Shown here one piece after another: positions 1,486 through 61,843 of a stretch of DNA of 64,000 nucleotides. The stretch covers positions 143,098,001 through 143,162,000 of the forward strand of contig NC_086097.1 in the NCBI RefSeq assembly GCF_963921235.1, in the 5' to 3' direction. The notes under the pieces were generated by a model that saw only the letters and a program-made list of their open reading frames with translations, made no database searches and was not told where the DNA came from. The stretch comes from Mobula hypostoma. Its lineage: Eukaryota. The translations under genes were made by a program, and so were the position numbers. Each line of letters begins with the position of its first letter. Position 1 is the first letter of the stretch.

Positions 1486-1759
1486 TATTTACTAACCAAT
1501 ACTGAAAAAACAATTTAATCAGTCTTTTATCTGATCTGTATATGTAGGTCCATTCCTCTATTTAAGGGCAGTTTGAGGAGACACTTTGCTCAACTTCCAC
1601 CTTATTTCAATTCATGGAGAAGATTTTGATGCAGATTTTCATCTTTTCTTTTGCTTGGCTGCCAAAATATTTCATAGCTCAATCCTTGGCTGAAAAGCAA
1701 ATTAACCAAAATCCAAAAAAGCAAAGGATAATTTAGATAATGATGATAATAGCATGCAC

Positions 1760-1921
1760 CTGCAGATTATAATGAGGAACTTTATCAGGAGGAGTGCTTG
1801 TCCAAGGCCTGCCTCAGCCTCCTCAGTCGATAATCTCTGTACACATTGACTCAATTGATGGCTCAGAACTTGCAGCACATTGCCTGGCAACAGTGGAATC
1901 TCTGCAGTCATCTCTTCAGGC
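1760..1921 (-). CDS. nbeal2: Neurobeachin-like protein 2, coding exon (probably exon 3), 162 nt, phase 2/2
   Basis: Splice context is ttgttacttctag|G CCT GAA...TGC AG|gtgcat. Translation is (R)PEEMTAEIPLLPGNVLQVLSHQLSQCVQRLSTEEAEAGLGQALLLIKFLIIIC(R), matching the NBEAL family motif RPEE..E.PLLP...QALLL.K..II.CR. AG from the previous exon plus G makes an in-frame Arg. Confidence 0.92.
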
Positions 1922-2334
1922 CTAGAAGTAACAAGAAAATACAGAGGATTGAAACCATAGCAACGAAACATAAATCAGATCAGGCCTTGAGCAAGAAACT
2001 TGCGCTGGCCTCCCCTTCTATGAAGCGAAACGTGATATAATTACTGTGTTTCTTTTAAAGCACTTCAGAGGTTCCACAACTGCTTATTTTTAAAAAAGTA
2101 AACATACTACACAGCTACTCTTGCAGTGATAAATGCAAAATAAGAGCAAGCTCCAACTAAGTATTTTCTCAGAATACTGAGCTGGAATACACAAGCCCTT
2201 ATAAAGGTCACCTCAAATCCCTTCTAACCTGTTTTAATTGATTAAGCTGTGTCATTTGTCACTTATTCTCCCAAATTAGTTCTTAGCACTCTCTAAAAAT
2301 TTAAGACAATTTAACAAGGCACCCAAGTGCAGTA

Positions 2335-3564: not shown

Positions 3565-3665
3565 CTCAAGATGCTGGTGGAACTCTGCAGGTCAGGCAGC
3601 ATCTAAGGGAATCAATAAAGAGTCGATGTTTTGGGCTGAGACCCTTCATCAGGACTGGAGAGGAA
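3565..3665 (-). mobile_element. Penelope-like terminal repeat (pLTR) fragment with inactivated hammerhead (GAAA to AAAA)
   Basis: The minus strand reads CCAGTC CTGATGA AGGGTCTCAGCCC AAAA CA TC GACT, followed by gatgctgcctgacctgc, the same repeat family as 48887-50290. Confidence 0.8.
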
Positions 3666-4319: not shown

Positions 4320-4414
4320 CTTCGCTGAAGTGGCTCAAAGGAGCTGATGTCAATAATTCGCTCAAAGGATGTGACAAAAGCTTCAAGCCATTGCTGAAGA
4401 TAGTGAGGATCCTT
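4320..4414 (-). CDS. nbeal2: Neurobeachin-like protein 2, coding exon (probably exon 2), 95 nt, phase 0/2
   Basis: The minus strand reads tttatttacag|AAG GAT...CGA AG|gtaatt and translates to [31 protein letters not shown](R). This matches the NBEAL2 segment KDLGYLQQWLKAFV...SSLEPRR as recalled, and is closer to NBEAL2 than NBEAL1. This frame is absent from the ORF track. Confidence 0.92.
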
Positions 4415-6694: not shown

Positions 6695-6810
6695 AAGTAA
6701 AAACAGAGAATGCAAGAAACCCTCAGCAGGTCAGATCGCAGCTGTGGAAAGAGAAACACGTCAGGTTTCAGGTCTAGGAGCCTTCATCAGAACTGGGTAA
6801 GAGAGAAAAA
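6695..6810 (-). mobile_element. Penelope-like pLTR fragment, old
   Basis: ctcagcaggtcag...tttcaggtctaggagccttcatcagaactgg is a degenerate reverse pLTR with a CTGATGA...GAAA remnant. Confidence 0.6.
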
Positions 6811-7403
6811 GAAGTTTATTTTCCGTAGCCAAGAATTTGGGGGAGGGACAATTAGAACAAGAAGAATATTTCTGATAGGCTGTGACCAAGTGAGTTAATA
6901 GGAGCAGTCAGGTCGAGTAGCATGCTACTACTTCGTGTAATATGTTGTTAATAGCAACGCTGTGGGATGTGTCCTGCAAGCCAGGACATATTCATAGAAA
7001 TAGAAAAATAGCTCAAATAAAGATAAGTGGAAATGGCCAGTTCTGATCCAGACAGAAAGAAAGAGCATTAACTAAAGTCAGAGACTTGATAAATCTAGAA
7101 GCTATACAGCAAAGGACACAGGCTCCACCTTCTCCCATGACGGAGGGGTCATGGGCCTCCTGCCCTCTGCTGTGGTCTTGAGCAATTATTCAACACCTCA
7201 ATTGCCATGTTGCTCTGTGGAGAATTCCAGGACATAGATATCCTGAGCTTTCAGCTGCTCCTCTTTCCGATATGATCAAAGGGCATTTCTTTGGAAAATC
7301 TCTGCTTTTCCCCATTCTCCTCCCCATTTCTTATTTTGCACCTCATGTGCGCCTTCCACCTGGTAAGGTCCTAAACCACCCCTTCAAACACAATCAATGT
7401 CAA

Positions 7404-7580
7404 TATTATGTTTGTGGTACTGAGAAGCCACACACAGGAGACGGAAAGTTGAGTTGCAGCTGTTTACTTTGCACGTAAGCCATCTACTCAGAATGTTCTG
7501 TCCCATTATGTTCAGTCCGTAATGCACAGGGAGGCTTGACAGCTACATGCAAGGTTCAAAATATACAAAACATACATATT
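7404..7580 (-). repeat. 3' LTR of the 7404-12699 Gypsy
   Basis: Diverged direct repeat of 12509-12699, adjacent to the polypurine tract. Confidence 0.65.
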
Positions 7581-16909: not shown

Positions 16910-17145
16910 AGATACATGAGATTCTGCAGATGCTGGAAATCTTGTGTGGAACACATACAAAATGCTGGAGGGAACTCAGCAGGTCAGGCAGCATCTACGG
17001 AAGGAAATAAACAGTCAAAATTTTGGGCTGAGACCTTTCATCAGGAGATCCTGTGAAGAGTCTTAGCGTGAAACATCAACTGTTCACCTTCCTCCCTATA
17101 CGCTGCCTGACCTACTCAGTCCTCCAGCATAGTGCGTATGTTGCC
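16910..17145. mobile_element. Penelope-derived fold-back element (two inverted pLTR arms)
   Basis: The left arm gcagatgctgg...tttcatcagga is joined by gat to an inverted arm cctgtgaagagtc...cctccagcat...gttgc. Confidence 0.8.
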
Positions 17146-17968: not shown

Positions 17969-18205
17969 TCATAAACATAAGAGATTCTGCAGATGGTAGC
18001 AATCCACAGCAGCACACATAGAATGCTGGAGAAACTTCGCAGGTCAGGCAGAATTTATGGAGAGGATAAAACAGTTGACATTTTGGGCCGAGATCTGATG
18101 AAAGGTCCTGACAAATAGTCTCAACCCACAACATTGACTATTTATTCCTCTCCATAGATGCTGCCTGACCTGCTGAGTTCCTCCAGCCTTTTGTGTGCGT
18201 TTCTG
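17969..18205. mobile_element. Penelope-derived fold-back element
   Basis: Inverted pLTR arms meet at gggccgagat-ctgatgaaag-gtcctgac. Confidence 0.8.
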
Positions 18206-18689: not shown

Positions 18690-21390
18690 TGAGAGATAGA
18701 GCACAGTAATGGGCCTTTAGAACTTAGAACATAGAAATTTAAAGCACATTACAGGCCTTTCGGCCCACAATTTTGTGCCGACCATGTAACCTACTCTAGA
18801 GACTGCCTAGAATTTCCCTAGCACATAGCTCTCTATTTTTCAAAGCTCCATGTATCTATCTAAGAGGCTCTTAAAAAACCCTGTTGTATCCTCTTCCATC
18901 ACTATCACTGGCAGTGCATTCCACGCACCCACCACTCTCTGTGTGGAAAAAGTTACCCCTGACACGCCCTCCATACCTATTTCCAAGCACCTTAAAACTA
19001 TGCCCCCTTGTGTTAGCCATTTCAGCCCTGGGAAAAAGCCTCTGGCTATCCACACGATCAATGCCCCTCATCATCTTATACACCTCTATCAGGTCACCTC
19101 TCATCCTCCGTTGCTCCAAGGAGAAAAGGCCAAGTACACTCAACCTATTCTCATAAGGTACGCCCTCCAATCCAGGCAACATATTTGTAAATTCCTCTGC
19201 ACTCTCTCGATACTATCCACATCCTTCCTGCAGTGAGGTGGCCAGAACTGAACACAGTACTCCAAGTGGGGTCTGACCAAGGTCTTATATAGCTGTAACA
19301 TTACCTCATTGCTTTTGAACTCAATCTAGGGTTGATGAAGGCCAACACACCATATGCCTTCTTAACAACACTGTCAACCGGTGCAGCAGCTTTGAGTGTC
19401 CTATCGACACAGACCCTAAGATCTCTCAGATTCTCCACACTGCCAAAAGTCTTACGTTTATATTATATTCTGTCTTCAAATTGGACCTTCCGAAATGAGC
19501 CACTTCACACTTACCTGGGTTGAAGTCCATCTGCCACTTCTCAGCCCAGTTCTGCATCCTATCGATGTTCTGCTGTAACCTCTGACAACCCAGAGGTTGT
19601 TAAAATCCACAACACTCCCAACCTTTGTGTCATCAGCAAGCTTACTAACCCACCCTTCTAATTCTTCATCCAGGTCATTTATAAAAATCACAAAGAGGAG
19701 GGGTCCCAGAACAGATCCCTGTGGAACACCACTGGTCACCAACCTCCATGCAGAATAGGAACCATCTACAACCACCTTTGCCTTCTGTGGGCAAACGAAT
19801 TTTGGATCCACAAAGCAAGGTCTCCTTGGATCCGATGCCTCATTACCTTCTGAAGAAGCCTTGCATGGTGAAACTTATCGAATACCTTACTGAAATCCAT
19901 ATAAACTACATCCACTGCTCTACCTTCATCAGTGTGTTTTGTTACATCCTCAAAGAAATCAATCAGGCTCGTAAGGCAAGACATGCCCTTGACAAAGCCA
20001 TACTGACTATCCCTAATCATATTATGTCTCTCCAAATGCTCAGAAATCCTGCCTCTCAGGATTTTCTCCAACAGCTTTCCCACCACTGAATTCAGACTCA
20101 CTGGTCTATAATTTCCTGGGTTATCTCTACTTACTTTCTTGAACAAGGGAACAACGTTTGCAACACTCCAATCCTCCGGTACTTCTCCCAACCCCATTGT
20201 TGATGCAAAGATTATCGCTAGAGGCTCAGCAATCTCCTCCCTCACCTCCCACAGTAGCCTGGGGTATATCTCATCTAGTCCCGATGACTTATCTAACTCC
20301 ATGCTTTTCAAAAGCTCCAGCACATCCTCTTTCTTAATGTCTGTATGCTCAAGCATTTCAGTCCGCTATAAGTCATCCCAACAACTGTCAAGGTCTTTTT
20401 CCCTGGTGAATACTGAAGCAAAGTATTCATTAAGTACCTCTGCTACCTCCTCCGACTCCATGCTCACGTTTCCACTATCACACCTGATCGGTCCTATTCT
20501 CACATGGCTCATCCTCTTGCTCTTCACATACTTGTAGAATGCCTTGGGGTTTTCCTTAATCCTGCTCACCAAGACCTTCTCATGGCCCCTTCTGGCTCTC
20601 CTAGTTCCTTTCTTAAGCTCCTTCCTAGCAACCTTGTATTTTTCTAGAGCTCCAACAGTAACTAGTTTCTTGAACCTTTCGTAAGCTTTTTTTTTCTTCT
20701 TAACTAGATTTTCTACATACTTTGTACACCATGGTTCTTTAACCCTACCATCATTTCCCTGCCTCAATAGACATACCTGTGCAGAACTCCATGCAAATTT
20801 TTCCTGAACATTTGCCACATTTATGCCGTGCATTTCACTGAGAACATCTGCTCCCAATTTATGCTCCCAAGTTCCTACCTAATAGCGTCATATTTCCCCC
20901 TAACCCAATTAAATGTTTCCCCAAATTGTCTGCTTCTATCCCTCTCCAGCACTATGGTGAAAGAGATAGAGTTGTGGTCACTACCTCCAAAATAATCTCC
21001 CACTGAGAGATCTGACACCTGACCAGGTTCATTTCCCAATACCAGATCAAGTACAGTCTCTTCTCTAGTAGGTTTATCTACATATTGTGTCAGGAAACCT
21101 TCCTGACCACACTTAACAAATTCCACCCCATCTAAACCCCTTGTGCTAAGGAGATGCTAATCAATATTAGGAAAGTTAAAATCTCCCTGGCCAAATGTTT
21201 CTGGCCTGGCGAACCCACGCCAGTCAGTTCCACCCATGTGACCAATTAACCTACTAACCTGTACATCTTTGGAATATGGGAGGAAATTGGAGCTCCTGGA
21301 GGAAACCCAGGTGGTCATGGGGAGAACATCCAAACTCCTTACAGACAGTGATAGAATTGAACCAGGTAACTGTTACACTACCATGTTGTC
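18690..21390 (-). mobile_element. tRNA-derived SINE split by the CR1 insertion (pieces ~18690-18717 and ~21200-21390)
   Basis: The SINE tail agatagagcacagtaatgggcctt continues after the CR1 as ctggcc...ttaacctactaacc...tttggaat.tgggaggaaa...ggggagaac..caaactcc. Confidence 0.65.
18718..21190 (-). mobile_element. CR1 LINE, 5'-truncated (~2.5 kb), endonuclease C-terminus to 3' tail
   Basis: ORFs 20875..21126, 20366..20857, 19766..20356 (PGNYRPVSL, QYGF, VDVVYMDFSK), 19476..19811 ([16 protein letters not shown]) and 18871..19182, with a (ttcta) tail. Confidence 0.95.
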
Positions 21391-22864: not shown

Positions 22865-25430
22865 GACTCAAGAGACAACAGATGCTGGAATTTGGAGCAA
22901 CAAACAAACTGCTGGAAGCAAATCGTCATCATTTTGGGTCAAGATCCTGCATCAGGGCTGAGTGTAGAGCAGTATAAAGAGGTGATATCGGGTGGAAAGG
23001 AAGTGCCTGGCAGGTGATGGGTGGAACCAGGTGAGGAGGGAGATGATGGACAAATGGAACGAAGTGGGGAGGGATGGGGTCAGGAAACAGCGGGGTGGGT
23101 GACAGGTAGAAACTGATAGTGGGGATGAAAGGGGGAAGATAGAGCCATGTGGGGCAGCTCCAACAGAATCCCACAGCCAGTCACACATTCATCTCACCAC
23201 CGCTTTCTGTTTTCCACAGGAACCGGTTTCTCTGTGACTTCCTGGTTCACTTGTCCCTTCCCAACCACACCTCCACCTCCCTAGAAACTTTCCCCTGCAA
23301 CCCTAGGCAATGCAATCTCCTCCCTCACCACCATCTAGAACCCAAACAGCTTCTCCAGCTCAGGCATAAATTCGTGAGCACCACCTTGTCTACTGCATTC
23401 GGTGCTGTTGATATGGACTCTTATATGTTGGCAAGACCAGGTGTAGACTGGACAACCATTTCATGGAAAACTTGTTCCCTGCCCACGATGGCCATCCTGA
23501 CCTCCCTGTTGCATACCATGTCAACTCCTCCTTCCATTCCCACATGAACCTGTCCATCCTTAGCCTTCTCCACAGCCATGGTGAGGTAAACACAAACTAA
23601 AAGAATACTCCACATCTTAGATTGTTTGCAACCTAATTCCATGAACATGGAATTTTCCAACTTCTGGTAACCCACAGCTCCTGTGCTTTTTTCTCTCTCC
23701 TTCTGGTCTCTCCTTGCCCCAAATCACCATCTTCATTCCACCCCCCCATATGGTTTCATCTGCCATCGTGCTTCCATTTGTCATACGTATTAATTATCAA
23801 ATTCCATAATCTGCAGTATCTTGTTTCCACTTATCACCTTCCAGCCTCTTGTACCCATCTCTACCCTCCCTCCCCCACCTAGCTCCATCCACCCCCATTA
23901 CATTCCTCCTCACCTAGTTCAAGTTCAAATGTATTGTCATTCAATCATATACATGTATACCAACAAACGAAACTATGTTCCTCCAGGACAAGATGCACAA
24001 CACAGTTCATATAACTCAAACATAATACAAAGGTAATATACATCTGGAGAAGAAGGATGCTTATGTGAGAATGCTGTTCTTGGACTCCAGTTCAGCATTC
24101 AACACCATAATTCCATCCGGACTCAACAAGAAGCTCAGAGACCTGCCTTGTGCAGCTGGAGCCTATCAGATCGCCAGCAGATGGTAAGAGTGGGCTCCCT
24201 CACTTCTGGCCCTCTGACCCTCAACACAGGTGCCCCTCAGGGCTGTGTCCTAAGCCCCCTCCTTTACGTTCTGTATACCCATGACTCTGTCGCCACCCCA
24301 CAGCTCCAATCTGCTAATTAAATTTGGTGACGACACTACACTGATTGGCCTAATCTCAAATAATAATGAGGTAGCCTACAGAGAAGAAGTCATCACCCTG
24401 ACACAGTGGTGTCAAGAAAACAATCTCTCCCTCAATGTCGCAAAAACAAAGGAGCTGGTTGTGGATTACAGGAGGAATGGAGACAGGCTAACCCCTATTG
24501 ACATCAATGGATCTGGGGTTGAGAGAGTGAACAGCTTTAAGTTCCTCAGCATACACATCACTGAGGATCTCACGTGGTCTGTACATATCAGCTGTGTGGT
24601 GAATAAAGCACAACAGCACCTCTTTCACCTCAGACGGCTGAAGAAATTTGGTATGGGCCCCCAAATCCTAAGAACATTCTACAGGGGCACAATCGAGAGC
24701 ATCCTGACTAGCTGCATCACTGCCTGGTGTGGGAATCTGTACTTCCTTCAATTGCAGGACTCTGCAGAGAGTAGTGTGGGCAGCCCAGCGTGTCTGTAGA
24801 TGTGAACTTCACACTATTCAGGACATTTAGAAAGACAGGTGTGTAAAAAGGGCCCGTAGGATCATTGGGAAACCGAGTCACCCCAACCACAATCTATTCC
24901 TGCTGCTACCATCGGGGAAATTGTACTGTAGCTTAAAAGCCAGGACCAACAGGCTCCGGGACAGCTTCTTCCACCAGGCCGTCAGACTGATTAATTCATG
25001 CTGACACAACTGTATTTCTATGTTATATTGAGTGTCCTGTTGTACATACTATTTATTACAAATTACTATAAATTGTACATTGCACATTTAGATGGAGACA
25101 TAACATTAAGATTTTTACTCCTCGTGTACATGAAGGATGCTAGTAATAACATCAATTCAATTACCACAAATAAATTAACAAATTATAAGGTACATTCATG
25201 ACCCAAGTCAAAACGCAATAACAGTATACATTACTTGATGGGACCTTGGGAGTTCTGTCGTCTCACAGCCAACCTCTTGCCTGCCAGCCCTTGCTTCACC
25301 CCTCCCCAACACCTATACTGGGCACTCTCAGTCCTAATTCAGGGTCCTGACCTAAAATGTCAATTCTTCATTTGCCTCCACAGATACTGCTTGACCTGCT
25401 GAGTTCCCCAGCAATGTGGTTTCTGATCTG
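22865..25430 (+). mobile_element. Penelope-like element (inverted 5' pLTR, GIY-YIG remnant, 3' pLTR), interrupted at ~23916-25255
   Basis: Remnants FPCNPRQC, VYCIRC..GLLYVGKTRCRL..HF.E and NMEFSNF. The 3' pLTR resumes at ~25256 and ends with ctgcttgacctgctgagttccccagca. Confidence 0.8.
24043..25160 (+). mobile_element. Rex1/Babar LINE 3' fragment (RT)
   Basis: [40 protein letters not shown] and LNVAKTKELVVDYRR (ORF 24281..24799), followed by a 3' UTR. Confidence 0.9.
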
Positions 25431-27029: not shown

Positions 27030-27945
27030 ATGATTCAAGCTGGGTGGCAGTGTGAAATGTGAGGAGGATGTTATGAGAATGCAGGGTGACTTGAACAGAT
27101 TGGGTGAGTGGGCAGATGCATGGCAGATGCAGTTTAATGTGGATAAATGTGAGGTAAATGTGTGGCAAGAACAGGAAGGTAGATTACTATCTGAATGGTG
27201 TCAAGTTAGGAAAAGGGGAAATACAATGAGATCTAGGTGTCCTTGTTCATCAGTCACTGAAAGTAAGCATGCAGGTACAGCAGGCAGTGAAGAAAGCTAA
27301 TGGCATGCTGGCCTTCATAACAAGGGGAGTTGAGTATAGAAGCAAAGAGGTCCTTCTGCAGTTGTACAGGGCACTGGTGAGACCACACCTGGAGTATTGT
27401 GTACAGTTTTGGTCTCCAATTTTGAGGAAGGATATTCTAGCTATTGAGGGAGTGCAGCGTATGTTCACAAGGTTAATTCCCAGGATGGCAGGATGTCATA
27501 TGCTGAAAGATTGGAGCGACTGGACTTGTATACACTGGAATTTAGAAGGATGAGAGGGGATTTGATTGAAACATACAAGATTATTAAGGGATTGGACACG
27601 CTAGAGGCAGGAAACATGTTCCCGATGTTGGGGGAGTCCAGAACCAGAGGCCACAGTTTAAGAATAAGGGGTAGACCATTTAGAACGGAGTTGAGGAAAA
27701 ACTTTTTCACACAGAGGGTTGTGGTTCTGTGGAATGCTCTGCCTCAGAAGGCAATGCGGCCAATTCTCTGGATTCTTTCAAGAAAGAGTTAGATAGAGCT
27801 CTTAAAGATAGCGGAGTCAAGGGATATGGGGAGAAGGCAGGAAAAGGGTACTGATTGTGGATGATCAGCCATGATCACAGTGAATGGCGGTGCTGGCTCG
27901 AAGGGCCAAATGGCCTACTCCTGCACCTATTGTCTATTGTTTATT
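27030..27945 (+). mobile_element. CR1 LINE 3' fragment
   Basis: ORFs 27052..27300, 27269..27553 (LVRPHLEYCVQFWSP) and 27493..27792, with a (ctattgt) tail. Confidence 0.92.
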
Positions 27946-31559: not shown

Positions 31560-32380
31560 ATTAAAATGACTTTATTCCTTACATCCTTCAGATACCTGAG
31601 GATAAAAACCTTTACCTTACGTCTCCCTCTAAATGTGCAATCGTAGTAATTTATAATAATTTATAATAAATAGAACAGTCAATGCAATGTAGAATACACT
31701 CAAATCAACATGAGTTAATCAGTCTGATGACAAGAAACTGTCCTGGAGCCTGTTGGTCAGCTTTTAAGGTGCGGTACCATTTCCCAGATGATATCAGCTG
31801 GAATAGATTGTGGTTGGGGTGACTCGGGTTCCCAATGATCCTACAGACCCTTTTTACACACCTGTCCTTGTAAATGTCCTGAATCATGGGAAGTTCACAA
31901 CTACAGATGTGCTGGGCTGTCCGCACCACTCTCTGCAGGATCCTATGATCAAGGGAGGTACAGTTCCCATACCAGGCAGTGATGCAGCCAGTCAGGATGC
32001 TCTCAGTTGTTCCCCTATAGAAAGTTCTTAGGATTTGGGGGCCCATACCAAACTTCCTTGACCGTCTGAGGTGAAAGAGGCGCTGTTGTGCCTTTTTCAC
32101 CACACAACTAGTGTGTACAAACCAAGTGCGGTCCTCGGTGACGTGGATGCCGAGGAACTTAAAGCTGTTTACCCTCTCAGCCCCAGATCCATTGATGTCA
32201 ATAGGGGTTAGCCCATCTCCATTCCTCCTGTAATCCACAACCAGCTCCTTTGTTTTTGCAACATTGAGGGAGAGGTTGTTTTCTTGATACCACTGCGTCA
32301 GAGGGATGACTTCTTCCCTGTAGGCCAACTCGTTATTGTTTGAGATAATGCCAATCAATGTAGTGTCGTTAGCAAATTTG
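31560..32380 (-). mobile_element. Rex1/Babar LINE 3' fragment, same family as 24043-25160
   Basis: ORF 31705..32358 is near-identical in protein to 24281..24799, and the 3' UTR is similar. Confidence 0.92.
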
Positions 32381-32661
32381 GGACTTCTGTTTGGGACTTC
32401 TATTGCCAGAAGTATTTAAGACCATCTGTGTGAGTTACTTTGTCCAGCAAAGGTAACTGGAAAACATATGCAGATTATGTCATCTCGTAGAAAATAGTAT
32501 AAATTTCAGAAACATTGGGGATTGCTATGAATGATGAGGAGACTGATAGAAAGATGAGATTACAGAAAGAAGTCCACCAGTATATTTGTAGGACAGCAGG
32601 ACTCATACATTAGGCTAAGCTGTCTGTTTAGGAGAATGAGGGATGATTCCATTGAAACATG

Positions 32662-43894: not shown

Positions 43895-45190
43895 CAGAAG
43901 ACAAGAAGACATAGGAGCAAAATTAAGCTATTCAGCCCTTCAAATCTGCCCCACCATTCCATCATGGCTGATTTATTATCCCTCTCAACCTTATTCTCCT
44001 GTCTTCTTCCCATAATATTTGATGCCCTTACTAATGAAGAACCTAACAGCCTCCATTTTAAATATACCCACAGACTTGACCTCCACAGCTTCTGAGGCAA
44101 TGAATTCCACAGATTCACCACCCTCTGGCTAAACAAATTCCTCCTCATCTCTGTTCTAAAGGGATGTCCTTCTATTCTGAGGCTGTGCTCTCTGGTCCTG
44201 GAGTCCCCCACTACAGAAAATATCCTCTCCACATCCACTCTATCTAGGCCTTTCAATATCTGATAAGTTTCAATGAGATAGATAGATACTTTATTGATTC
44301 CAAAGGAAATTATGGTGTGTCACAGTAGCATTACACATGCACAGATATAAATATTAGAAGAGAGATAGAAAGAATAAAAAATAAGTTAACATAAACAGTC
44401 TAACAGGAGGAGATCATCACTTCCCTAGCTACAGGTTGACTCATTATAGAGCCTAATGGCCGAGGGTAAGAATGACCTCATACAGTGCTCTTTGGAACAG
44501 CGCTGTTATCTTAGTCAGAGATTCCCCTTCTTTCTTTTAAACTCCAGTGAGTACAGGCCCAGAGCCATCAAACACTCATGTGTTAACCCTTTCATTTCCA
44601 GAATAATTCTCATGAACCTCCTCTGGACCATCTCCAATGCCAGCACATCTTTTCTTAGATAAGGGCCCAAATCCTCTCACAATGCTTTATAAACCCTCAG
44701 CATTACATCCTTGCTTTTGTATTCTAGTCCTCTTGAAATGAATGATAACATTGCATTTGCCTTCCTCACCACTGACTCAACCTGCAAGTTAAACTTTAGG
44801 GCAAGTCCCTTTGCATCTTGAATTTTGAAATTTTCTCCCCATTTAAATACACTTTGTTCCTTCTACCAAACTGCATGATCATACACTTCACACCACTGTA
44901 TTCCATCTGCCACTCCCTTACCATTCCCCTAATCTCTCTCCGTCCTTCTGCAGATTCCTTGCTTCCCCAACACTACCTGGCCCTTCACCTATCTTCAAAT
45001 AATCTGCAAATTTGGCCACAAAGCCATCGTATTTGTCATCTAAGTCATTCACATATAATATGAAAGGACGTAATCCCAACACTGACCCCCGTAGAACACC
45101 ACTAGTCACCGGTAGCCAACCAGAAAAGGCTCTCTTTATTCCCACTCTTTGCCTCCTGTCAGTCAGCCAGCCAATCTTCTATCCTTGCTG
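43895..45190 (-). mobile_element. CR1 LINE 3' portion (an older CR1 remnant adjoins at ~43400-43880)
   Basis: ORFs 44918..45145 (VTSGV..GSVLG...KFAD) and 43852..44256. Confidence 0.9.
44280..44517 (-). mobile_element. Rex1-type LINE 3' tip with (TATC)n tail nested in the CR1
   Basis: TSD GAGAT (44275-44279 and 44518-44522). The minus strand encodes RSFLPSAIRLYN. Confidence 0.75.
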
Positions 45191-45744
45191 GATGACAGGC
45201 AAGATGAATATACACAAATCTTCCTCACCACTATTGACCTTTCTTGTCACTTTCAGGGAACAATGGAAGAGATTAATTGGCAGAATTTATCAAAAAATGG
45301 TGTCAGAGTAGACTGCATTCTTTGAAATTGTCTATTCCAACCAGATAAATATCAGTAAAAACCATTTTAACCTTGTACAGGGTTTCGACCATGATAGCAA
45401 GAACACCTTTGCCAAAAACGTACTTTAATAGACATAAACCTTCACCTTGTTTTTTTATCTGAAAAACTCGACAAGATTATAAACACTCCATGTTTCCCAA
45501 GCTATTGTTCAATGTGAGAATATTGTGACATCCAAAGCTCAACAGGAAGAATGTGTGATGCTTACAGGAAGTGTAGACCAAATGCAAATCATTAACGAAT
45601 AAAATTCCTATGAAGTAGCCTACATTTAGTTGATGAATCAATTGTTTTCATATTTCAATTAGTAGTTAAGTCACTACAAAAAGCCATTGACCATGGCCTC
45701 AAACTATTGTCCAGTAATTTAGCATAATTCAATGACAATTAGTT

Positions 45745-45900
45745 GGCTGGTGGTGCAGTTGCATCAGCACTGTACTTTGAGGTGAATGATCTCGGGTTCG
45801 AATCCTAGCGGCTCTCTGCACGCTTCCCATCCATGCTGGGTTGAGCATCAAGCTAGCAACTTGGCCTCGTTAAAAAAAGACAAGAGCTAAGGAAATGGCA
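45745..45900 (+). mobile_element. tRNA-derived SINE (different family)
   Basis: A-box tggtgcagttgc and B-box ggttcgaatcc, followed by an unrelated body and A-rich end. Confidence 0.65.
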
Positions 45901-46779
45901 AACATGCATTTCTGGACAGGAAGGAAATGTAAGACTCTCTACATCCTACACACATTTTGACTTCCACTCGAAATAGGGTTTGGGTTGGCAGAATGGCTGA
46001 ACTCTTCTCCCCCGAGTGAGTGTTGCTGTATGGTATGGATTTCATTCGAATGTCATTGGTACTCACAGGATGCCTGGGATAATTGGACAACAACTTACAG
46101 AACACAGAAAGGGACATACAACTTCGGAATGAATCAGGAATCTTTGGCACCTCTGCTGTGCTTATGGACAGGATGATGGAAACAGCATTCTCCATTGGCC
46201 TGTCTTTTTCCTCCTACTTGCTTTTCCATGTTTCTCCCTGATATTGGTCCCAAATTGTTGATTACATTTCATAGTTTCTGGTAGGAGGCAAGAACCAACA
46301 GTTCCATTTACTGAACATTGCAATGTTGTTGAAGCCCCCATCGGTCACCATAGTGTTACAATCAAAGAAATTGCTTTGAGAAAACTGGGGAGTTCAGTGA
46401 TTTTAAATGATACAGCTGTTCATCTTCTCGAGATGAAAAATATTCCTCACAATATCCATTTATTAAATAATTCCAACCGCCAAGATTCAAGAATAGCAGA
46501 TCTTGCCTTTTTGTAAAAAACATTTAATTAGCCTTCACTAATTTGACCCCATGATCCCCTAAATCACTCTCACAACATCAGTTGAGAGAATACACTGAAT
46601 TTTCTCATTCCTCGCTGTGCCTTCTCTTATTTACGTCACTGAATAGGTTCACAATTGATTTTTTGTAACTCAAGTGCCTAACCCATTATTCCTGGCTGTC
46701 CATAACTATTCTATCCTGCAATATGGAAGTATGCTTTACTGTTCCCGGATGCTCGTTTTCTCAACTGATACAACGTGCC

Positions 46780-46986
46780 TAAAATGCTCAAGGAATGCAG
46801 CAGCTGGGGTGGCATTTTTGGAAGGAAATAAATAGCCAATGCGTCAGGACAAGGCCTGATGACAGAGTCTCAGCACAAAACGTTGACTGTTTATTTCCCT
46901 CCATAGATGCTGTCTAACCTGCTGAGTATCTCTCGTGGTTTGTGTGTTGTTCTAGATTTCCAGTAGCTGCAGAATCTCTTGTATCT
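46780..46986. mobile_element. Penelope-derived fold-back element, old
   Basis: Inverted arms meet at gcgtcaggacaaggcctgatgacagagtctc. The right arm carries the long tail ttccagtagctgcagaatctcttgt. Confidence 0.75.
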
Positions 46987-48988
46987 TCACCATCTCCAAT
47001 TTCACCCCATTCCCTCTTGGGATAACTTGCATATCTGTTTGGATATGCAAAAGATCCCATGGCACCATTCAAAGACTAGGAAGCTCTTCCAATGATGATG
47101 GGTCAATACTGCCATGAATCAACACCATCATAGTGTTTAGAATTTCTGATCATTTACTTATTAGCTGCTTGAAGGATGTTGCTTTGAAAATGACAAAATT
47201 ACTCTCAAGTTTGTCCCTAAAATAGTGATTGCAATTTAAATGTAAATGTAATCTGTTGCTCAGGTTCTAATATAGCCATGCTCAATACAGATATAACAAG
47301 AATGTTAATTATATAAATCTATTAACACATCCCAAGGCATTTCACAGGGGGGGGGGGGGTAATATATCAAAAATTGACACCAGGCCAAAGGAAGAAATAT
47401 TAGATGGGTGGGGGACAAGTTTTGAGCAGCATTAAGGAGAGGTAGTGCAGAATATTGGGGAAGAAAGTCCAGAGTTTATGGCCGTAAACACTTTACCCTC
47501 AGTTACATGAAATGGAAGCGCACATTGATAATGGGCTACACCAGGAGCTAAGTGATTTCATGGAGGTGATTCATGTAGAGAGGAGGAAGTTCTAATAAAA
47601 CGAGTAGTTGGCTATGGGAATCAGGAGATGATGACTACTGAGGATAAGTATCTCAAATACAAAGTATTGCTAAATAATCAAATTCTAAAGGCATGGCATT
47701 GGGTGAAAAGGATTGTCAGCTGGCTAAGTTACAAGAACCCCTCAAGCTTCTAATAGTCCTTTCAAAATAATAGCTCCACTTGACTTTCTCTTCTTCATTA
47801 TGCCGCTCTGCAAATGATACTATGGCAGCTTTTATAACCACCCAAGAGTGCAACAGAACTTCCTTTAACATCTTGCCTTGAAGATGGCACCTGAGTAACT
47901 ACAGAATTCCCTCATTACTGCAGTTAAGTATCAAGCAATATTGTAGAACCATATCCATTTTTTTTTCCAAGTCAGGATATCTCCTTGTACAATAAAACAG
48001 CCATGGTTGCATTTCCTTGCTCTTTCTCCAAAACCCTGCCAAATTTATCTTCAGTGTTTATCCAATTTCCCCTTTGAAAATGCTAACTTAATATTCTGAA
48101 TCATAACTATTTGCTGCATAAACTGGATAGATTTCCAGTTAATTTAAAGCTGACCTCTGGCCTTTGACTTCTCTGCAAATAAGGATATTTTCTATTTACC
48201 CTTTCCAACTCAGCTTCATTTGTCCACATTTATTAAGCCTTATAGCCAATATATTATTTTATCATATGCACTGCCGGATTCGCCTTCCACGCAAGTGTCC
48301 GTTGTGAGAGTTGTGTTATTTATTGCTCATCTGTCTGACATCATCACATTTTAGAGATTGAAAACAATCTCTCCCTTCCATCTCTGTCCATGCAACAATG
48401 ATCAGGTTCAGAGGAGAGTGAAGGCACGTGTCAGTGAAGACAGACTCAAGCAAACCAAGATGGCAAATAGATTGAACGTTTCATTTGCAGTTTGGAGGTT
48501 AACTACAACCTTTGGTGCACTACCACTCCATTCAGTGAAGGTCCACAGGTGATTAGCTCAATGTGGGATTGTGCAAGCATCCTCAGTAACTTCAGAAAGA
48601 GAGGGAGATAAATGGAAATAGCTATCTTTCCTGTTCCTCTTTGTTCTAGAATATAGAATGTCTAGGATCAATTCTTGCTACAGTGCCCAGCGTAGCCAAA
48701 CAGCTATCTTACACATTTAAATCTGAAGAATGGATCCTTTAACGAAGATGGGGTTGCTCACTCTATTGAACTGTATACCAGATTAGAAAACTGTTAGTTG
48801 GGGAAAAATATGGAATATTGTTGTCTAGGGTGCAATGCGATTGAAGTATTTAAGATTATGTGACAGGATAGACTGGGATGTTTTAAAACGCAAACAACAG
48901 GAATTCTGCAGATGCTGGAAATTCAAGCAACACACATCAAAGTTGCTGGTGAACACAGCAGGCCAGGCAGCATCTCTAGGAAGAGGTA

Positions 48989-49026
48989 CAGTCGACGTTT
49001 CAGGCCGAGACCCTTCGTCAGGACTG
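48989..49026 (-). ncRNA. Minimal type-I hammerhead ribozyme, intact
   Basis: 5'-CAGUC CUGACGA AGG-GUCUCGG-CCU GAAA CG UC^GACUG-3'. It has the CUGANGA and GAAA boxes, stem II AGG/CCU, a perfect stem I CAGUC/GACUG, a GUC triplet, and palindromic ACGU in place of helix III. Confidence 0.85.
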
Positions 49027-50190
49027 AACTGGAGTTCAGGCAGGCATGAACTTCAGATTGCCTCTGCCATTGATCTTGCCGGCTCCAACACCTCAGGGCA
49101 TATTCGAAACCCGGACTCCAGCAATGACCATGGACACTTTCAAAGCGATTGCACAACCACCAACTGCGACTCCAGCCTCGAACTCCAGGCCGGGTCTTTA
49201 TGTGCTGCTATTGTGACTCCCATCTCCCCTTCCCCCACCAATACTCTGCAATCCCATCTCCCTCAGATCCCATCGTCAGCTCCTGGGTACTCAGAGGCTC
49301 CATCTTCCTCTCACTACAACCCTCCCCACCCCACTGACACCCCCAGCCTCCCCCCCGATCCCAGCTCTCATCCGTGCTGGGTCTTCACCATCCCCTTCGA
49401 CCTTCAACTGTCAGAGGCAGAACGCTCTGTCCTCAGTAAGGGCCTCACCCCTGTCCCCCTTTGCCCACACCTCAGTGAGTTCCGTGTTCTTCCGCCGTCT
49501 CCGTCTCCGAGCCTACTTCTTCGGCAAGGACTCTTCCACCCCCACTGATGACCCCTTCTCCCGTCTTCAATCCTCCTTTTCTTCATGGACACCCCGCTCT
49601 GGTCTTCTGCCTGCTCTGGATCTCTTTATCGCTAATTGCCGACGGGACATCAACCGTCTCGACTTCACCGCACCTTGTTCCCATTCCAACCTCACTCCTT
49701 TGGAACGCTGTGCTCTCCACTCCCTCCGCACTAATCCTAACCTTATTATTAAACCCGCCGATAAGGGGGGGTGCTGTTGTAGTCTGGCGGACTGACCTCT
49801 ACCTTGCCGAGGCACAGCGACAACTCGCTGATACCTCCTCTTATTTACCCCTCGATCATGACCCCACGAAGGAGCACCAGGCCATTGTCTCCCACACCAT
49901 CACCGACTTTATCCACTCAGGGGATCTCCCATCCACTGCTACCAACCTTATAGTTCCCACACCCCGCACTTCCCGTTTCTACCTCCTACCCAAGATCCAC
50001 AAACCTGCCTGTCCTGGCAGACCTATTGTCTCAGCTTGCTCCTGCCCCACTGGACTCATTTCTGCATACCTCGACACAGTTTTATTCCCCCTTGTTCAAT
50101 CCCTTCCTACCTATGATCGTGACACTTCTCACGCTCTTAAACTTTTCGATGATTTTAAGTTCCCTGGCCTCCACCGCTTCATTTTCACCT

Positions 50191-50227
50191 AGTCCTGACG
50201 AAGGGTCTCGGCCTGAAACGTCAACTG
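50191..50227 (+). ncRNA. Minimal type-I hammerhead ribozyme, core intact, one stem-I mismatch
   Basis: AGUC CUGACGA AGGGUCUCGGCCU GAAA CG UC^AACUG, with G to A just 3' of the cleavage site (CpG-type change). Confidence 0.75.
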
Positions 50228-53168
50228 TACCTCTTCCCAGAGATGCTGCCTGGCCTGCTGCGTTCACCAGCAACGTTGATGTGTGTTGCTGGGATGTTTT
50301 AACAAGGGTTTAACTTTTATCTATGACCCTTGTTATAATGGGTAAACCCAAGTGATTCAGATTAATACTGTAAGCCTGAGAATCTTCACAGAGATTTGAG
50401 AGGCTACAGATTCACTTCTCAGTTTAGTCATTGGTGAACTATGTCATATTCAATATTGAGTTGGATGGATTGATGGAATGTCATGTTTTGGGAAAAGGGA
50501 AAATAATTTGAATGAAGGTTGCATAGTTGCTGAGACAAATAGCCTTTTTCAATATTTTGACTTCTAAGTGTTCGTTTTCTAATTGAGAAAATACTTGTGG
50601 TGAAGTCAGGATTAACTCTGGTGATATGTTACCATCATCTACAGGCTGGAATCTTTTATGAAAATGGTCAATAGTCATTTTTGTAAAGCATCAATGGCTG
50701 GGGCTGCAAATAAAAAAAGCATCTCAGAGATGCTGAGAAATTAAGCCATGGAAAAATAAAATGGGTTGCATTTTTGACCTAATGCACCATGAAGTGGTAC
50801 TGAACGCCTTACATGTCAGCTGATTTTGAAGGCTCTGGCAGCCAAAGGCATTATCTGTGATCACTGCCATTTTGTGCATGACAGTGTCAGCTATGACTCA
50901 GTCAGAAGCAAGAACATAATCTGGAGCAGCACTGAAGGTTGATGATACACCGAGATTAGACTTTTAGATGTACAGTACGTGTATATTTACATGTACACAT
51001 GATTAGCACCAGACCGGGAATGTAGTGTATTTTGGCCCGTATGTGTCGGTCTGTCAATCAGCATCACCTGAGAAAGATAAGCTGGCTATCATCACAATAT
51101 TGTTTATGAGACTATGCTGTGTCAAAATGGCTGCTGCCTCTTCTAAATAAGCAGAGCAGCTAGACTTTGTATTTCAAAATATCAATCTGCTGGAGGAACT
51201 GTAGCATGTGTAGAGGCAAAAGGATGGTTGACATTTTGGATCAAGTAATCATCCCTTTGCAACCACAGAAGTTACCTGACCTACTGAGTCTCTCTGATGG
51301 TTTTATTTTGTTTCTAGTTTGTTCCACATTCCAGCATCTGCTATTTCTTGTGTCTCTATTGGAAGCATCTCATCCTTGGGATAAAAAGGTGGTGCAAATT
51401 TTCAGGGTTTTCATTGGTTAAAAAGAATCAGATATTTAAAAAGAATTTTGGGTGCAGTGAGGCTGATGTCCTTGCTACCCAGGGTGGTATAGATGCACTC
51501 CATGACTGATCTCAAGCATTGCAGAGCAGTGCTGAGCAGGCACTTTGATAAGCCAGCACCAGTTCATTATCTGCCAGTTCAAGTCAGTGTTAAAGATCTC
51601 GTGGCTGCATTCGGGATATAGAGACACAGTGAATTTCAGAGGCCACAGGATGAGTGGTTCAGTAGTCGAGAACTATTAAACCAGAGAAATTCTACAACTG
51701 TAGTTCAAAAAGATGAATTCAGGTTTAAAACCCAGGAAGCAAAAAAGCTGGCAATAAGTAAAGACAGTTGTCAGATAAAAAGAACTCATCTTGTTTAGTG
51801 CCATCTTCTGTGGAAGGATTGTATCTTGTCTAATTGGCCTCTGAAATGCCAAACTATATGGTATTCCAGGGAAAGGTTGCCTTCTTAGAGCACCTGTGTA
51901 CGGGACACCCATATCCCAGGAAAAATCAATTGCAAATAATAGCCCCTATGTAGCTCCACAGATTAACTCGTCAACTGTCTGTCACATACTGCTGGTTGTT
52001 ACGGAGAACAAATGCTGTACTTCCTTATAGACCAACTGTTAACAGCTATTCAGTAGGTGAAAAGCTTCAGGACAAGAGTGAAAGGGTCTCAGACATACGC
52101 AAATACAAACACAGAACTATTTGTGCCATTTACCATCAAAAGATCACATCGCGATGATTAGAACAGTTTAAAAGCAGGTACCAAAAGTAGCTTCAGTTTA
52201 AAGACTGATGTGTATACACTCCAAAAATAAAAATGGCCAGCTTTTAAAAAAGTCTATTCATGATCCATTCTTGAGCAGTAAAAATAACTGGCTTATCTCC
52301 ACACAATTGAAGTTTTAATACTTCCTGAAAAGCACAAGAATAAAAACAACTGAATTTACAATTTCATTACCTCGGATGCTGGCAAAAGAGGCTGAGAAAT
52401 GGATAAGTCCATTATCTGCCCACTTGCAGCAGCTCTCCTGAAGAATGTGTGTAGAGGGAGGCAATTGGTAACAGTGATGAGTGATGGCTGTTTGCACAGT
52501 GGGCTCTCGACAGGCTCCCTGCGACACAGGACTCCATGATATACTGAACTCCAAGCAGATCAGACAAGCCAGGAAGTGGCAAGTTACACAGACAAGACAG
52601 CTATATGCTTCCTCTCTCTCTCTCGCTCTTTGTGCTAATCTCTATCTTGTTGAATCAACAAGCTTATGAAGGATGTGGCAAATCGTTTTGTGCCCTGTCT
52701 ACAAACAAAACAAAAGTAATAGATATATTCTTCCCTTTCTGAAACCATTCTAACATGCCAGAATGGCCTGAATTTGTGGACAGAGTATCCTTACAGACAG
52801 TATTATAGTTGAACCCAGTGCAATCTTGCACAGGGACACAAGGCAAAATATAAAATCTCTATTAGCACTTTAGTTCAAATCACAATTCTATTTGATGAGC
52901 AACCTTGCTCGTGGCTACTTCACTATAACAAGACAACAGAATGCATTGCAGAACTTACACTTCTCTGATCAGGCTCTTAATAGCTCCTGAGTAATTTCAG
53001 AGCTATCATCTCTACCACCAAGGAGAGAGCAGCAGTACAACGGGAACAGCATCACTTCAATGTTCTCTAAAAGTCTCACACCATCTTGTCTTGTATGCAT
53101 CCAATCAATAGTAACAGCATTCCAGCATTCCAGTTCTTCAAGTGGCATCTATGTGAGAGCCTCCTTTT

Positions 53169-53377
53169 CATAGAACATAGAAACCTAGAAAACCTACAGC
53201 ACAATACAGGCCCCTCGGCCCACAAAGCTGTGCCGAACAAGTCCCTATCTTAGAACTACCTAGGCTTTACCCATAGCTCTATATTTTTCTAAGCTCCATG
53301 TAACCATCCAGGAGTCTCTTAAAAGATCCTATCGTTTCCGCCTCCACCGCTGGCGGCGGCAACCCATTCCACGCACA
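53169..53377 (-). mobile_element. CR1 3' tail, young
   Basis: (catagaa)n-type tail, cagcacaatacaggcccctcggcccaca and cattccacgcac, similar to the end at 18718. Confidence 0.8.
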
Positions 53378-53569
53378 TTGAATGGAGAAAGTCCACCAAC
53401 TTCTCCTCAAGGTAAACAAGTGACTTTCATTAAAATATTTCTTCAAAGTAAATACTTAGCAAGCATGCACCTGGGAATTAAACCCATTATATAACCCCCC
53501 CCCAGCAAAATTCATAGAAGGAATAATTTGCAAGTTTAAGAACAAACCTTTTAAACAGAAAAATATTTT

Positions 53570-56500
53570 ACATAGTCATAGAGCAGTACAGCTCAGGTAC
53601 AGGCCCTTCAGCCCAATGAGCCTCAACCACTTCCTCTGGAACTCACTTCATATATACACTACCCTCCTTTGCCCCTGATGTCTTTTTCAAAATCTTTCCC
53701 CTTTTACCTTAAACCTATGCTCCCTAGTTTTAGAATCCCCAACTCTGAGGAAAAGACTTTTACCATCCATCTTATCCATGCCTTTCATAATTTTAAACAT
53801 TTCATACCTCTTTCAGGGTTGGCCCTCATTCTCCAATGCTCCAAGGAATAAAGACCTAACCTGCTGAGTCTCTCCCGATAACTCGGGGCCTCTAATCCTG
53901 CCACATCCGCATTTATCTTTGCAGTTTAACTGTGTCTTTCACATAATGAGACACACAAAACTATACTTAATTCAGCCTCATTCATAACTTGTATAACTAC
54001 AGCATAATATTCTAAATCCTTAGTCAGTGCCATGAATGAGGAAGACTAGCATGCTTTTTCATTGCCCCTTCTATTGGTGATGCTACTTTCAATGAACTAT
54101 TCACTTGTACTCTTAGGTCCCTCTATCCCATTACACTCCTAGGGGCCCTACCATTCACTGTATGTCCTATCCTAGTTTGATCTTCCAAAATGCAATACCT
54201 CATATTTATCTGGATTGCAAGTCATTTGCTGGTCCTCAGTCCACTTCCCCAACTGATCAAGAGACCCTGTAATCCAAGCTAACCTTCTTCACTATCAACA
54301 ACACTTACTAATTTTGTGTCATCCATAAACTTACTGATCAAGCCTTTAGCATTCGCATCCTGATCTTTTCTATAAATAGGGAACAGCAAGGGTCGTAACA
54401 TTAACCCCTGCACCACAAAACTAGTCACTGGCCTTCATTCCAAGAAACACTTCAACCACCACCGCCTGCTTCCCAACTTGAGCCAATTTTGAATCCAACT
54501 AGCCAACTCTCCCTGGATTCCAGGAGACTTAACCTTTCTGACCAGCCGACCATACTGGTCCTCGTCAAAAGCCTTGCCAACACCAACTATCTTATCCTTA
54601 TCTAGCTGTTGGGTTTTACTTCTTAAAAGAACTTTAAAAGTTCATCAAGCACGACTTCCCATGCACAAAGTCATGCTGACTCTTCCTGAACCGATTCTAT
54701 CTATCTAAGTGCTGGTAGATCCCATCTTACAGAGTTCCCCCCAGGAACTCACCCACTATTGATGTCAGGCTGACTGATTTGTGTTTCCCTGGCTTCCCCC
54801 TGCTACCTTTCTTAAATAATAGGACAACCTCAGTCACCTTCCTGTCTTTCGGAACATTACTGGATAGCTAATGATGAAGCAAATATCTTCTCAAGATCAT
54901 CCAGAATTTCTCTTTGGCTCTCCACAAAATACAAGGCTGTATTTGGTCAAGGGACTCTCTCTCTCTCTCTCCCTACCCACCCTTTCACTCTTAATAAGGT
55001 GCTGGAACTTTTTGGATACTTTCCTAAACTTTACCTGCCAGACTCATCTCATACCCTTTCTCTGACCTCCTCATTTCCCTCTTAAGTATCCTTAATCAGT
55101 TTATAATTGTTAAGGGATTCATCTGATCCTGATATCCTAAACCCATTGAATGCTTTCTTCTTTTCCTTGACCAAAGCTTCAATATCTAATTTTAGCCACT
55201 ATTCCCTAAACTTGCCAACTTTACCCTTCACTCTAACAAGAATACAATGCTTCTGGACTCTTGATATGAAACTCTTAAAGCTCCCCACTTGTCATTCATT
55301 CCTTTCCTTTCAAACAGACCCACCTAGTCAACTTCTGCTAGATCCCATTTAATTCCCCAAAATCAACTCTGCTCCAGTTCAGGATCCTTTACGCTGGATC
55401 TTTTCCAGCAATATCTTAAAACTAATAGAATGATGCACACTGGAGTCAAAGTGCTTCCTGACTGCCACTTCAATTACTTACCCTACTTTGTTCCCCAACA
55501 GGAGGTTCAGTATTGCACCTTCTTGAGCAGACCCTCAATATACGGACTCGGAAAACTTTCCTGGACAATTTTCACAAATACCACCCTTCTAGGCTCTTAA
55601 CACTCTGCCTCACCCAGTCAATACTGGGGAAATTAAAATTTACCATTAACACAACCCTACTATTCTTGCAACTATGAGCAATTTCTCTGCACACCTCAAG
55701 TTTCCACTGACTATTGGGTGGGTCCATAATACAGGCTCACTACAGGGACCCTCCCCTTCTTGTTTCTAATTCAGAGCCTCGTTGAATGTTCCCCTAAGGA
55801 TGTCATCTCAAAACATTGCTGTTACATCCTCCCTGGTCAAAAAGGTACACTCTCGTCACTGACCTGCACCTGTCATGCCTACGGCATCTGTATCCCGGAA
55901 TGCTGAGCAGACAGTCCTGCTTTCCTCCCAGGCAGGTTTCCATTATGGGTATAATATCCCAGTCCTCAGATCCAATCCACACTCCAGCTTCATCCTTCTT
56001 ACCTACTAAACCGCGAGCATTGGAATAGTGTTCCTTTCTCTGCCTTTACTGTAACCCTGGCTATCCTGATTACTACACTTACTCTCACTGGCTACTGCTT
56101 TATCCAATGACTTGCTCCTGCTCCAGGTCTCATACCCCTTCCAAATTACTTTAAGTCCTCCTGTGCAGCACAGTCAAATTTTCCGACAAGGATATTAGTC
56201 CCTCTCTAGTTCAAGTGCAATTTGAGCCTCTTCTAATGGCTGCTTCTGTTCCAGAAGAGATTGCAATGGTCCAAGAACTTGATTCCCTGCCTCCTGCACC
56301 CACTCCTCAGTCACAAATTCATCTGGACAATGCTTCAATTTCTGACCTTGTGAGCATGTGGCACTGGGAGTCATCCGGAAATTATTACCCTCAAGGTCCG
56401 GCTTCTTAACTTCTTACCCAAGTCTTTACTTTCTGTTCTGTAGTCTCACCTAATGGAAACATCTACATAAAGTGGTAGATACAGCCCAGTCCATCAAAAG

Positions 56501-61613: not shown

Positions 61614-61843
61614 GAGCAACACACATCAAAGTTGCTGGTGAACGCAGCAGGCCAGGCAGCATCTCTAGGAAGAGGTACAGTTGACATTTCAGGCCGAGAC
61701 CCTTCCTCAGGACTGGCAAAGGGTCTCGGCCTGAAACGTCGACTATACCTCTTTCCTAGAGATGCTGCCTGGCCTGCTGCGTTCACCAGCAATTTTGAAG
61801 TGTGTTGCTTGAAATTCCAGCATCTGCAGAATTCCTCGTGTTT
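61614..61843. mobile_element. Young 230-bp Penelope-derived fold-back element
   Basis: 11-bp TSD ACCTTCTTTTG (61603-61613 and 61844-61854). Two ~95-bp inverted arms are nearly identical to the arms of 48887-50290. No coding sequence. Confidence 0.93.
61678..61715 (-). ncRNA. Minimal hammerhead motif, partly mutated
   Basis: CAGUC CUGAGGA AGGGUCUCGGCCU GAAA UG UC^AACUG. The boxes are retained, but the ACGU palindrome and first stem-I pair are altered. Confidence 0.6.

Follow-up and report, generated by a model that had tools for sequence, protein, structure and literature searches.

A minimal hammerhead of a young, broken PLE insertion in nbeal2 intron 1, predicted to pair with its own antisense arm

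Does a hammerhead ribozyme with an intact core, lying inside an intron of nbeal2, act on the pre-mRNA of its host gene, or is it one more copy of a mobile element? The question is raised by a 38-nt motif in the window, that is, the whole 64,000-nt stretch of Mobula hypostoma DNA analyzed here. The present analysis makes it highly probable that the motif is the minimal hammerhead (min-HHR) of a young, broken Penelope-like element (PLE) in nbeal2 intron 1, likely a neutral passenger, which is predicted to form a duplex of ~100 bp with its antisense arm and would not cut the pre-mRNA.

The hammerhead motif and its host gene

Read on the minus strand, the motif has the following parts.

48989..49026, minus strand: minimal type-I hammerhead, from the core read on this strand, folding, copy alignment and shuffles
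49026-49022 / 48993-48989, minus strand: stem I, 5 bp, CAGUC / GACUG
49021-49015, minus strand: core CUGACGA
49014, minus strand: bulged A, the unpaired base ahead of stem II
49013-49010 / 49005-49002, minus strand: stem II, GGGU/GCCU, 4 bp with G10.1·U11.1, loop CUCG
49001-48998, minus strand: GAAA
48998-48995, minus strand: palindrome ACGU, without a helix III loop
48994, minus strand: C17, with the predicted cut between 48994 and 48993

Along its 38 nt the motif runs through stem I, CUGACGA, a 13-nt stem II region, GAAA, CG and UC. The core CUGANGA ... GAAA ... UH is thus present in type-I topology, together with the helix I of 4-5 bp, the unpaired base between positions 9 and 10.1, and the palindromic 15.1-16.1 without a helix III loop that characterize PLE min-HHRs. 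The G10.1-C11.1 pair, which is described for this class as "highly conserved" and not as obligatory, is absent from the window copy and from the dominant subfamily of its family, both of which have the pair-keeping variant G·U. Judged by these sequence features, the motif is a minimal type-I hammerhead of a PLE terminal repeat, in agreement with the original prediction as regards the class with its palindromic ACGU, the core, stem I and the position of C17 at 48994 on the minus strand. The core pattern occurs twice in the 64-kb window and in none of 100 shuffles. The folding energy of the hairpin is unexceptional (z of -1.63, with 13 of 200 shuffles equally good), and a scan of positions 44000-54000 against Rfam at E<=10 gave eight weak matches, none of which is a hammerhead; the identity of the motif therefore rests on the conserved core and on its place in the element.

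The register of stem II differs from the AGG/CCU pairing proposed originally, which has to be rejected. The register with the bulged A, in which the pairs are G10.1·U11.1, G-C, G-C and U·G closed by the CUCG loop, is 1.4 kcal/mol more stable in the folding calculations, and the A-U pair of the AGG/CCU register is lost in 48 of 94 copies of the family, as compared to the G-Y pair, which is retained in 86 of the 94. Young copies have an unpaired A between positions 9 and 10.1 in 38 of 39 cases and old copies in 51 of 52, and the min-HHR consensus in the main account of PMC4209133 likewise has an unpaired base ahead of stem II, matching the bulged-A register.

The host gene is laid out around the motif as follows.

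Window-equivalent 90903-90853, minus strand, outside the window: nbeal2 exon 1, read in the neighbouring DNA, with a GT following
Window-equivalent 90852 (G000:C1:143188852) to 4415, minus strand: nbeal2 intron 1, 86.4 kb, with GT..AG ends
4320..4414, minus strand: nbeal2 coding exon 2
1759..1923 (ends approximate), minus strand: nbeal2 coding exon 3, from protein matches

The protein search with exon 3 returned 10 matches, four of which are named Neurobeachin-like 2 or NBEL2, and the exon product matches a catshark protein at 93%. Exons 1-3 all lie on the minus strand, and the hammerhead is therefore in the sense orientation within nbeal2 intron 1; the placement on the sense strand of the intron, as originally proposed, is borne out by the protein matches of exon 3 and by exons 1 and 2 with their GT..AG ends.

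The motif has company in the gene. Within introns 1 and 2 of nbeal2, either strand carries older, decayed copies of the terminal repeat (pLTR) of related lineages (at about 3570-3657, 6766-6806, 16921-17056, 17973-18204, 25327, and 46852-46975), and fragments at 19476-21156, 24254-24799, 27230-27792, and 31705-32415 presumably resemble other LINE-type retrotransposon ORFs. A second young insertion of the same family, at 61615..61843 (no strand assigned), also lies in intron 1 and is a head-to-head palindrome in which both hammerheads are damaged.

The PLE insertion, its family and its junctions

The motif is part of a 1.4-kb unit bounded by a 14-bp target-site duplication (TSD).

48873..48886, plus strand: left copy of the TSD, 14 bp
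48887..49033, minus strand: left arm, an inverted, 5'-truncated pLTR that ends at the ribozyme 5' edge and includes the optional tail
48887..48920, minus strand: PLE tail of ~35 nt, on the left arm only
49024..49039, no strand assigned: fold-back filler at the inversion junction, a 7-bp perfect inverted repeat with a 2-nt loop, read from the sequence
49040..50189, plus strand: frameshifted PLE ORF fragment, antisense to nbeal2; the family ORF alignment begins at 49040
50190..50288, plus strand: right arm, a pLTR without the tail, beginning at the first base of stem I
50190-50227, plus strand: right-arm hammerhead, in which G>A at 50223 breaks the stem I pair adjoining the cleavage site
50289..50302, plus strand: right copy of the TSD, 14 bp

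The two arms are 94% complementary over 105 nt and are 1165 nt apart, and the antisense partner that had been placed about 1.2 kb away is thus real. The ORF fragment comprises the N-terminal region, DKG motif included, and the first part of the RT, the remaining RT and the endonuclease being missing, and it matches 80 proteins, several of which have RT and GIY-YIG domains. The family copy L064 has an endonuclease ORF directly upstream of the same ribozyme, with a C-x4-C-x2-C linker and 38% identity to P0059. In another family copy, L008, the pLTR runs straight into the beginning of the PLE ORF, both having one orientation, a tandem layout that displays the 5' region of the element. The ribozyme accordingly sits within the PLE pLTR, after the endonuclease ORF in L064 and before the ORF in L008. 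No Pfam family was assigned to two window ORF fragments or to the L064 endonuclease, and the PDB sequence search gave chance matches only.

Between them, the fragment and L064 supply the single ORF of EN+ PLEs, in which a DKG motif and RT are followed by a GIY-YIG endonuclease at the C-terminus, and the inverted pLTRs, the one-sided tail of 30-40 bp and the TSD agree with their layout, which has been described as an inverted, truncated pLTR with a 30-40 bp tail on one side and a TSD (PMC8557442, PMC3846280). The linker that joins RT and EN suggests, from sequence, that the element belongs to the Neptune clade, for which CX2-5CxxC is the motif definition given in PMC8557442, the linker being not exclusive to Neptune, as Nematis also has a linker zinc finger. 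Members of the family often occur as inverted pLTR pairs. At 33 of 90 family loci there are flanking repeats of 10-16 nt, with most of them 13-15 nt long, and the 3' ends cluster near +100 and at +135-140.

From the published biochemistry of PLEs, one can propose how such a unit would arise. The GIY-YIG endonuclease of the element would nick both strands ~14 bp apart, and reverse transcription would be primed at two internal start sites, at about +100 and +137. One cDNA would stop near the ribozyme 5' edge, the other would switch to an internal ORF position, and the two would be united head to head through a short fold-back filler. It is likely that the filler at 49024-49039 reflects snap-back synthesis during this joining.

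The family is very large. Exact matches to the 38-mer with U as first letter and U11.1 number 29,805 in the genome, followed by 4,395 for U first with C11.1, 1,096 for the window copy itself (C first, U11.1) and 143 for C first with C11.1; these four variants, which differ by one or two letters, total 35,439 exact matches, and the reversed sequence of each gives none. The 46-mer just downstream of the ribozyme occurs 30,839 times. The window left arm departs from the young-copy majority at two aligned positions and has one extra base, namely the C with which stem I begins. The CAGUC/GACUG pairing proposed for stem I thus stands, and its first C is not the letter of the family: C49026 aligns as a one-base insertion near the arm junction, and the first letter of stem I is U in 29,805 exact copies versus C in 1,096. 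We also considered U11.1 as the product of CpG decay in the window copy, a reading that is rejected, since copies with U11.1 outnumber those with C11.1 about 7 to 1.

A sample of 1.064 Mb (the window with 200 kb of flank and 80 spaced 10-kb pieces) contains 129 pLTR matches, 46 young, 81 old and two too short to be classed. Of the 98 copies spanning the entire ribozyme, 41 are young and 57 old; by our own criteria, 18 of the young and 2 of the old ones are intact, and extrapolation of these 20 gives roughly 65,000 intact hammerheads genome-wide. The motif had been singled out as intact, which is correct as far as the complete core and palindrome are concerned; the state is not special and reflects youth, 18 of the 41 young copies being equally intact. 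The old copies decay through the catalytic core, with G12>A in 29 of 52. They have G10.1-C11.1 as the majority pair, in contrast to the G10.1·U11.1 of the most amplified subfamily (29,805 versus 4,395 exact copies).

Covariation of stems I and II across genomic copies had been named as a check of the original prediction. The outcome is negative: for none of the stem pairs do two-sided changes in the 98 copies exceed the number obtained from column shuffles. Neutral copies are not expected to covary, and the negative outcome therefore counts against host selection on the copies and not against the fold. Between the majority sequences of the young and old lineages the core and the stems are retained, with only one-sided, pair-keeping differences. 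In old copies the non-CpG core positions vary less than the downstream positions (43/512 versus 421/2426), a difference that the selection of hits may favor. The pattern fits selection acting on the source elements and none on the inserted copies, as far as sequence comparison can tell.

Comparison with relatives likewise points to a young insertion. In sequencing runs X16 and X17, which come from other organisms, one contig each has an alignment that begins exactly at 50289, the first base of the right TSD; over about 900 nt of the right flank, 49 letters differ in X16 and 41 in X17, and at the 50289 side the contigs have a further 218 and 206 letters. Contigs of equal depth value (5.8 and 6.86) cover the left flank at 48800. 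The matching depths make it likely that both related organisms carry an empty site with one TSD copy.

The 5' junctions were compiled for 90 young copies anchored downstream of the ribozyme, taken from the first 100 of the 30,839 matches and lying in the first 8.3 Mb of C1; the loci examined include L051-L080 and L191-L250. On a scale that counts from the first base of stem I as 0 and puts cleavage at +32/+33, 23 of the 90 listed copies have their junction between -12 and +9, ~33 nt upstream of the cleavage site, as compared to 3 of 90 between +26 and +38 and 12 of 90 between -290 and -41, and 38 of 90 extend past -290. Per base at risk, this corresponds to 0.016, 0.0026 and 0.0011 junctions, respectively, for -12 to +9, +26 to +38 and -290 to -41 (binomial p of 5e-4 and 9e-14, the arms of one insertion being not independent). 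In the unbiased 1.064-Mb sample, none of the 46 young copies starts beyond +17, and both arms of the window insertion end at the ribozyme 5' edge (49026 and 50190). Because the junctions lie at the ribozyme 5' edge rather than at the cleavage site, the insertion template was likely uncleaved or re-ligated RNA.

Candidate causes of the pile-up are the start of transcription, a 3' splice site, an RT stop and palindrome trimming. Just 5' of stem I, in L064 (positions 1470-1505) and in other full pLTRs, there is a branch-point-like CTTACTNAC, a pyrimidine tract and CAG/TAG. By analogy with D. virilis Penelope, whose intron ends at helix I (PMC4209133), these signals are possibly a 3' splice site, and sense intronic copies that keep them could act as cryptic acceptors; the window left arm does not have them. 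An origin of the pile-up from spliced templates is unsupported, as the junctions near 0 share no upstream exon. In the papers on PLE hammerheads consulted, among them PMC4209133 and a 2026 preprint (bioRxiv 10.64898/2026.07.22.740005), we found no description of such a pile-up.

Predicted masking and possible roles in nbeal2

In the energy model, the core and the cleavage triplet are paired with each other in the best structure of the monomer, which makes up 73% of the ensemble, and folds with an open core have a probability of only 0.0001-0.001. The active homodimer is calculated at -14.1 to -14.7 kcal/mol, as compared to -25.2 kcal/mol for two folded monomers. When the whole insertion is folded on the strand of the gene, the probability of stem I is 0.0 and the arm duplex has an energy of -211 kcal/mol, whereas in the local context without the partner arm stem I reaches 0.6-0.9. 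It should be noted that nearest-neighbor energies omit tertiary contacts, Mg2+ and proteins, and that equilibrium folding ignores the co-transcriptional kinetics over 1.2 kb.

The right arm is antisense to nbeal2, and its complement is therefore transcribed ahead of the ribozyme. As nbeal2 is transcribed, the arm complementary to the ribozyme (50288 to 50190) is predicted to emerge first and to pair with the ribozyme as the latter appears. The suggestion that the motif could be masked by its partner arm is thus supported as a prediction, the whole ribozyme being paired in the model. Since it is predicted to be locked by its own antisense arm, the window copy is likely silent and ordinary, and a role of the motif in nbeal2 is unlikely. 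If the motif has a function, it would lie with the RNA of the source element, through dimeric or protein-assisted cleavage, and not with the window copy.

Two observations count against silence. One is the intact core, palindrome and cleavage triplet, together with the stem I probability of 0.6-0.9 when the partner arm is left out. The other is a second intact sense hammerhead, L033, in the same unspliced intron:

Window-equivalent 87691-87654 (G000:C1:143185654-143185691), minus strand: L033, intact hammerhead in nbeal2 intron 1

L033 has G10.1-C11.1, the same ACGU palindrome and upstream splice-like signals, and no close inverted partner was seen; of the two sense copies, it is the stronger candidate for being active. 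The active dimer of the window copy with L033 is calculated at -15.7 kcal/mol versus -25.5 kcal/mol for the monomers, that is, ~10 kcal/mol less stable. A special status or likely activity of the motif is not supported; L033, the nearest other intact sense copy, lies 38.7 kb upstream, and the dimer is disfavored by this amount.

An alternative is that the ribozyme cleaves the nbeal2 pre-mRNA at a low rate, before the arms pair, as a dimer with another sense copy or with the help of the protein of the element, and thereby lowers or tunes nbeal2 output. The intact core on the sense strand would permit this, another intact sense copy 38.7 kb upstream carries an identical ACGU palindrome, the ~65,000 extrapolated intact copies mean that trans partners exist, and protein-assisted cutting has been demonstrated for another PLE. 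However, transcription yields the antisense arm ahead of the motif, all of which is predicted to be paired with that arm, and the active dimer, which would rely on a 4-bp helix III, is calculated to lose ~10 kcal/mol to inactive folds. In addition, G10.1·U11.1 replaces the conserved G-C, and the genomic copies are without sign of selection. We consider such tuning very unlikely. The same small probability is given to the wider scenario that, among the ~65,000 intact hammerheads of the family, many of them intronic, the sense copies pair via ACGU, or are switched on by the protein of the element, and cut host pre-mRNAs such as that of nbeal2. If true, this would constitute a transposon-controlled layer of intron cleavage, with the window copy and L033 as sense examples, and hence a new transposon-linked control of gene output; the evidence points against it.

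It is also conceivable that the feature relevant to the host is not the ribozyme but the intronic arm duplex of ~100 bp, as a substrate of A-to-I editing or of dsRNA processing. ADAR edits long intronic inverted repeats, and the 105-nt arms, with their 94% complementarity and spacing of 1165 nt, have a predicted pairing probability near 1. Inverted pairs are, however, common in the family, and editing would be a by-product. This option is rated as even less probable than cleavage at a low rate, a rating that covers a selected host function and not editing as such.

That the motif is a chance or non-catalytic hairpin merely resembling a hammerhead is hardly tenable: the modest fold z-score, the missing Rfam match and the lack of two-sided covariation in its own genome speak for it, but the complete core, the bulged base ahead of stem II and the palindrome occupy the pLTR position published for PLE hammerheads, the lineage majorities keep core and stems with one-sided, pair-keeping differences, and the non-CpG core of old copies varies less than the positions downstream, though hit selection may favor the latter.

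The preferred reading thus remains that of a young passenger copy predicted to be held in a duplex with its own antisense arm. The locus itself matters little, being one young copy among tens of thousands, and the family is of interest as a large natural data set on what PLE hammerheads do.

Comparison with known systems

The motif shares with the metazoan PLE min-HHRs described in the main account of PMC4209133 the type-I topology, the 5-bp helix I, the unpaired base before stem II, the palindromic 15.2-16.2 and the absence of a helix III loop, as well as the genomic distribution, in which copies are scattered and mostly solo or in pairs on opposite strands. The differences with respect to that account are the 4-bp helix II, as compared to 7-8 bp in Schistosoma, the G10.1·U11.1 of the dominant subfamily in place of G-C, and the tens of thousands of copies, as compared to about 4,000-9,000 in coelacanth and Xenopus. 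Cartilaginous fish are not named among the min-HHR hosts in the sections of that account compared here, and the supplements of PMC4209133 and of the 2026 preprint may list chondrichthyan families.

With regard to activity, single min-HHRs were reported not to cleave, and dimers to do so weakly (Cervera and De la Pena 2014, PMC4209133); dimeric hammerhead cleavage is also the subject of Lunse et al. 2017, as cited in PMC6765202. The hammerhead of an Anolis PLE is described as cleaving only with the protein of the element and as dispensable for insertion in vitro, the uncleaved RNA being the template, and no RNA-seq reads ended at its cleavage site (PMC11167929). The G·U pair in the most amplified subfamily and the junctions located away from the cleavage site both fit uncleaved RNA as the insertion template, as reported there.

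The inverted pLTRs, the tail on one arm, the internal deletion and the TSD are shared with the EN+ PLE units of PMC8557442, PMC3846280 and PMC11167929, and the two classes of 3' ends fit the two RT start sites described for such units. Compared to the rotifer EN+ PLEs in PMC8557442 and PMC3846280, the TSD is longer (13-15 bp versus 8-10 bp), and the endonuclease linker is of the Neptune and not of the Poseidon type. Non-LTR retrozymes, one chondrichthyan case included, carry type-I hammerheads derived from PLE pLTRs (bioRxiv 10.64898/2026.07.22.740005). According to that preprint they form head-to-tail tandem arrays, in contrast to the head-to-head arms with an ORF fragment and no tandem ribozymes seen here. 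A retrozyme reading of the insertion was rejected, as there is no tandem array.

Finally, hammerheads found in amniote introns, such as HH9 in RECK, are reportedly canonical, single-copy, conserved and active as monomers. The window copy has in common with HH9 its position on the sense strand of a long intron, but it is of the minimal type, belongs to a multi-copy family, is young and is probably missing from close relatives. A domesticated intronic hammerhead is rejected on sequence grounds, given the 35,439 exact copies of the 38-mer and the likely empty site in two relatives. By its sequence, the motif in nbeal2 is an ordinary member of the known PLE min-HHR class, in which G·U replaces G10.1-C11.1.
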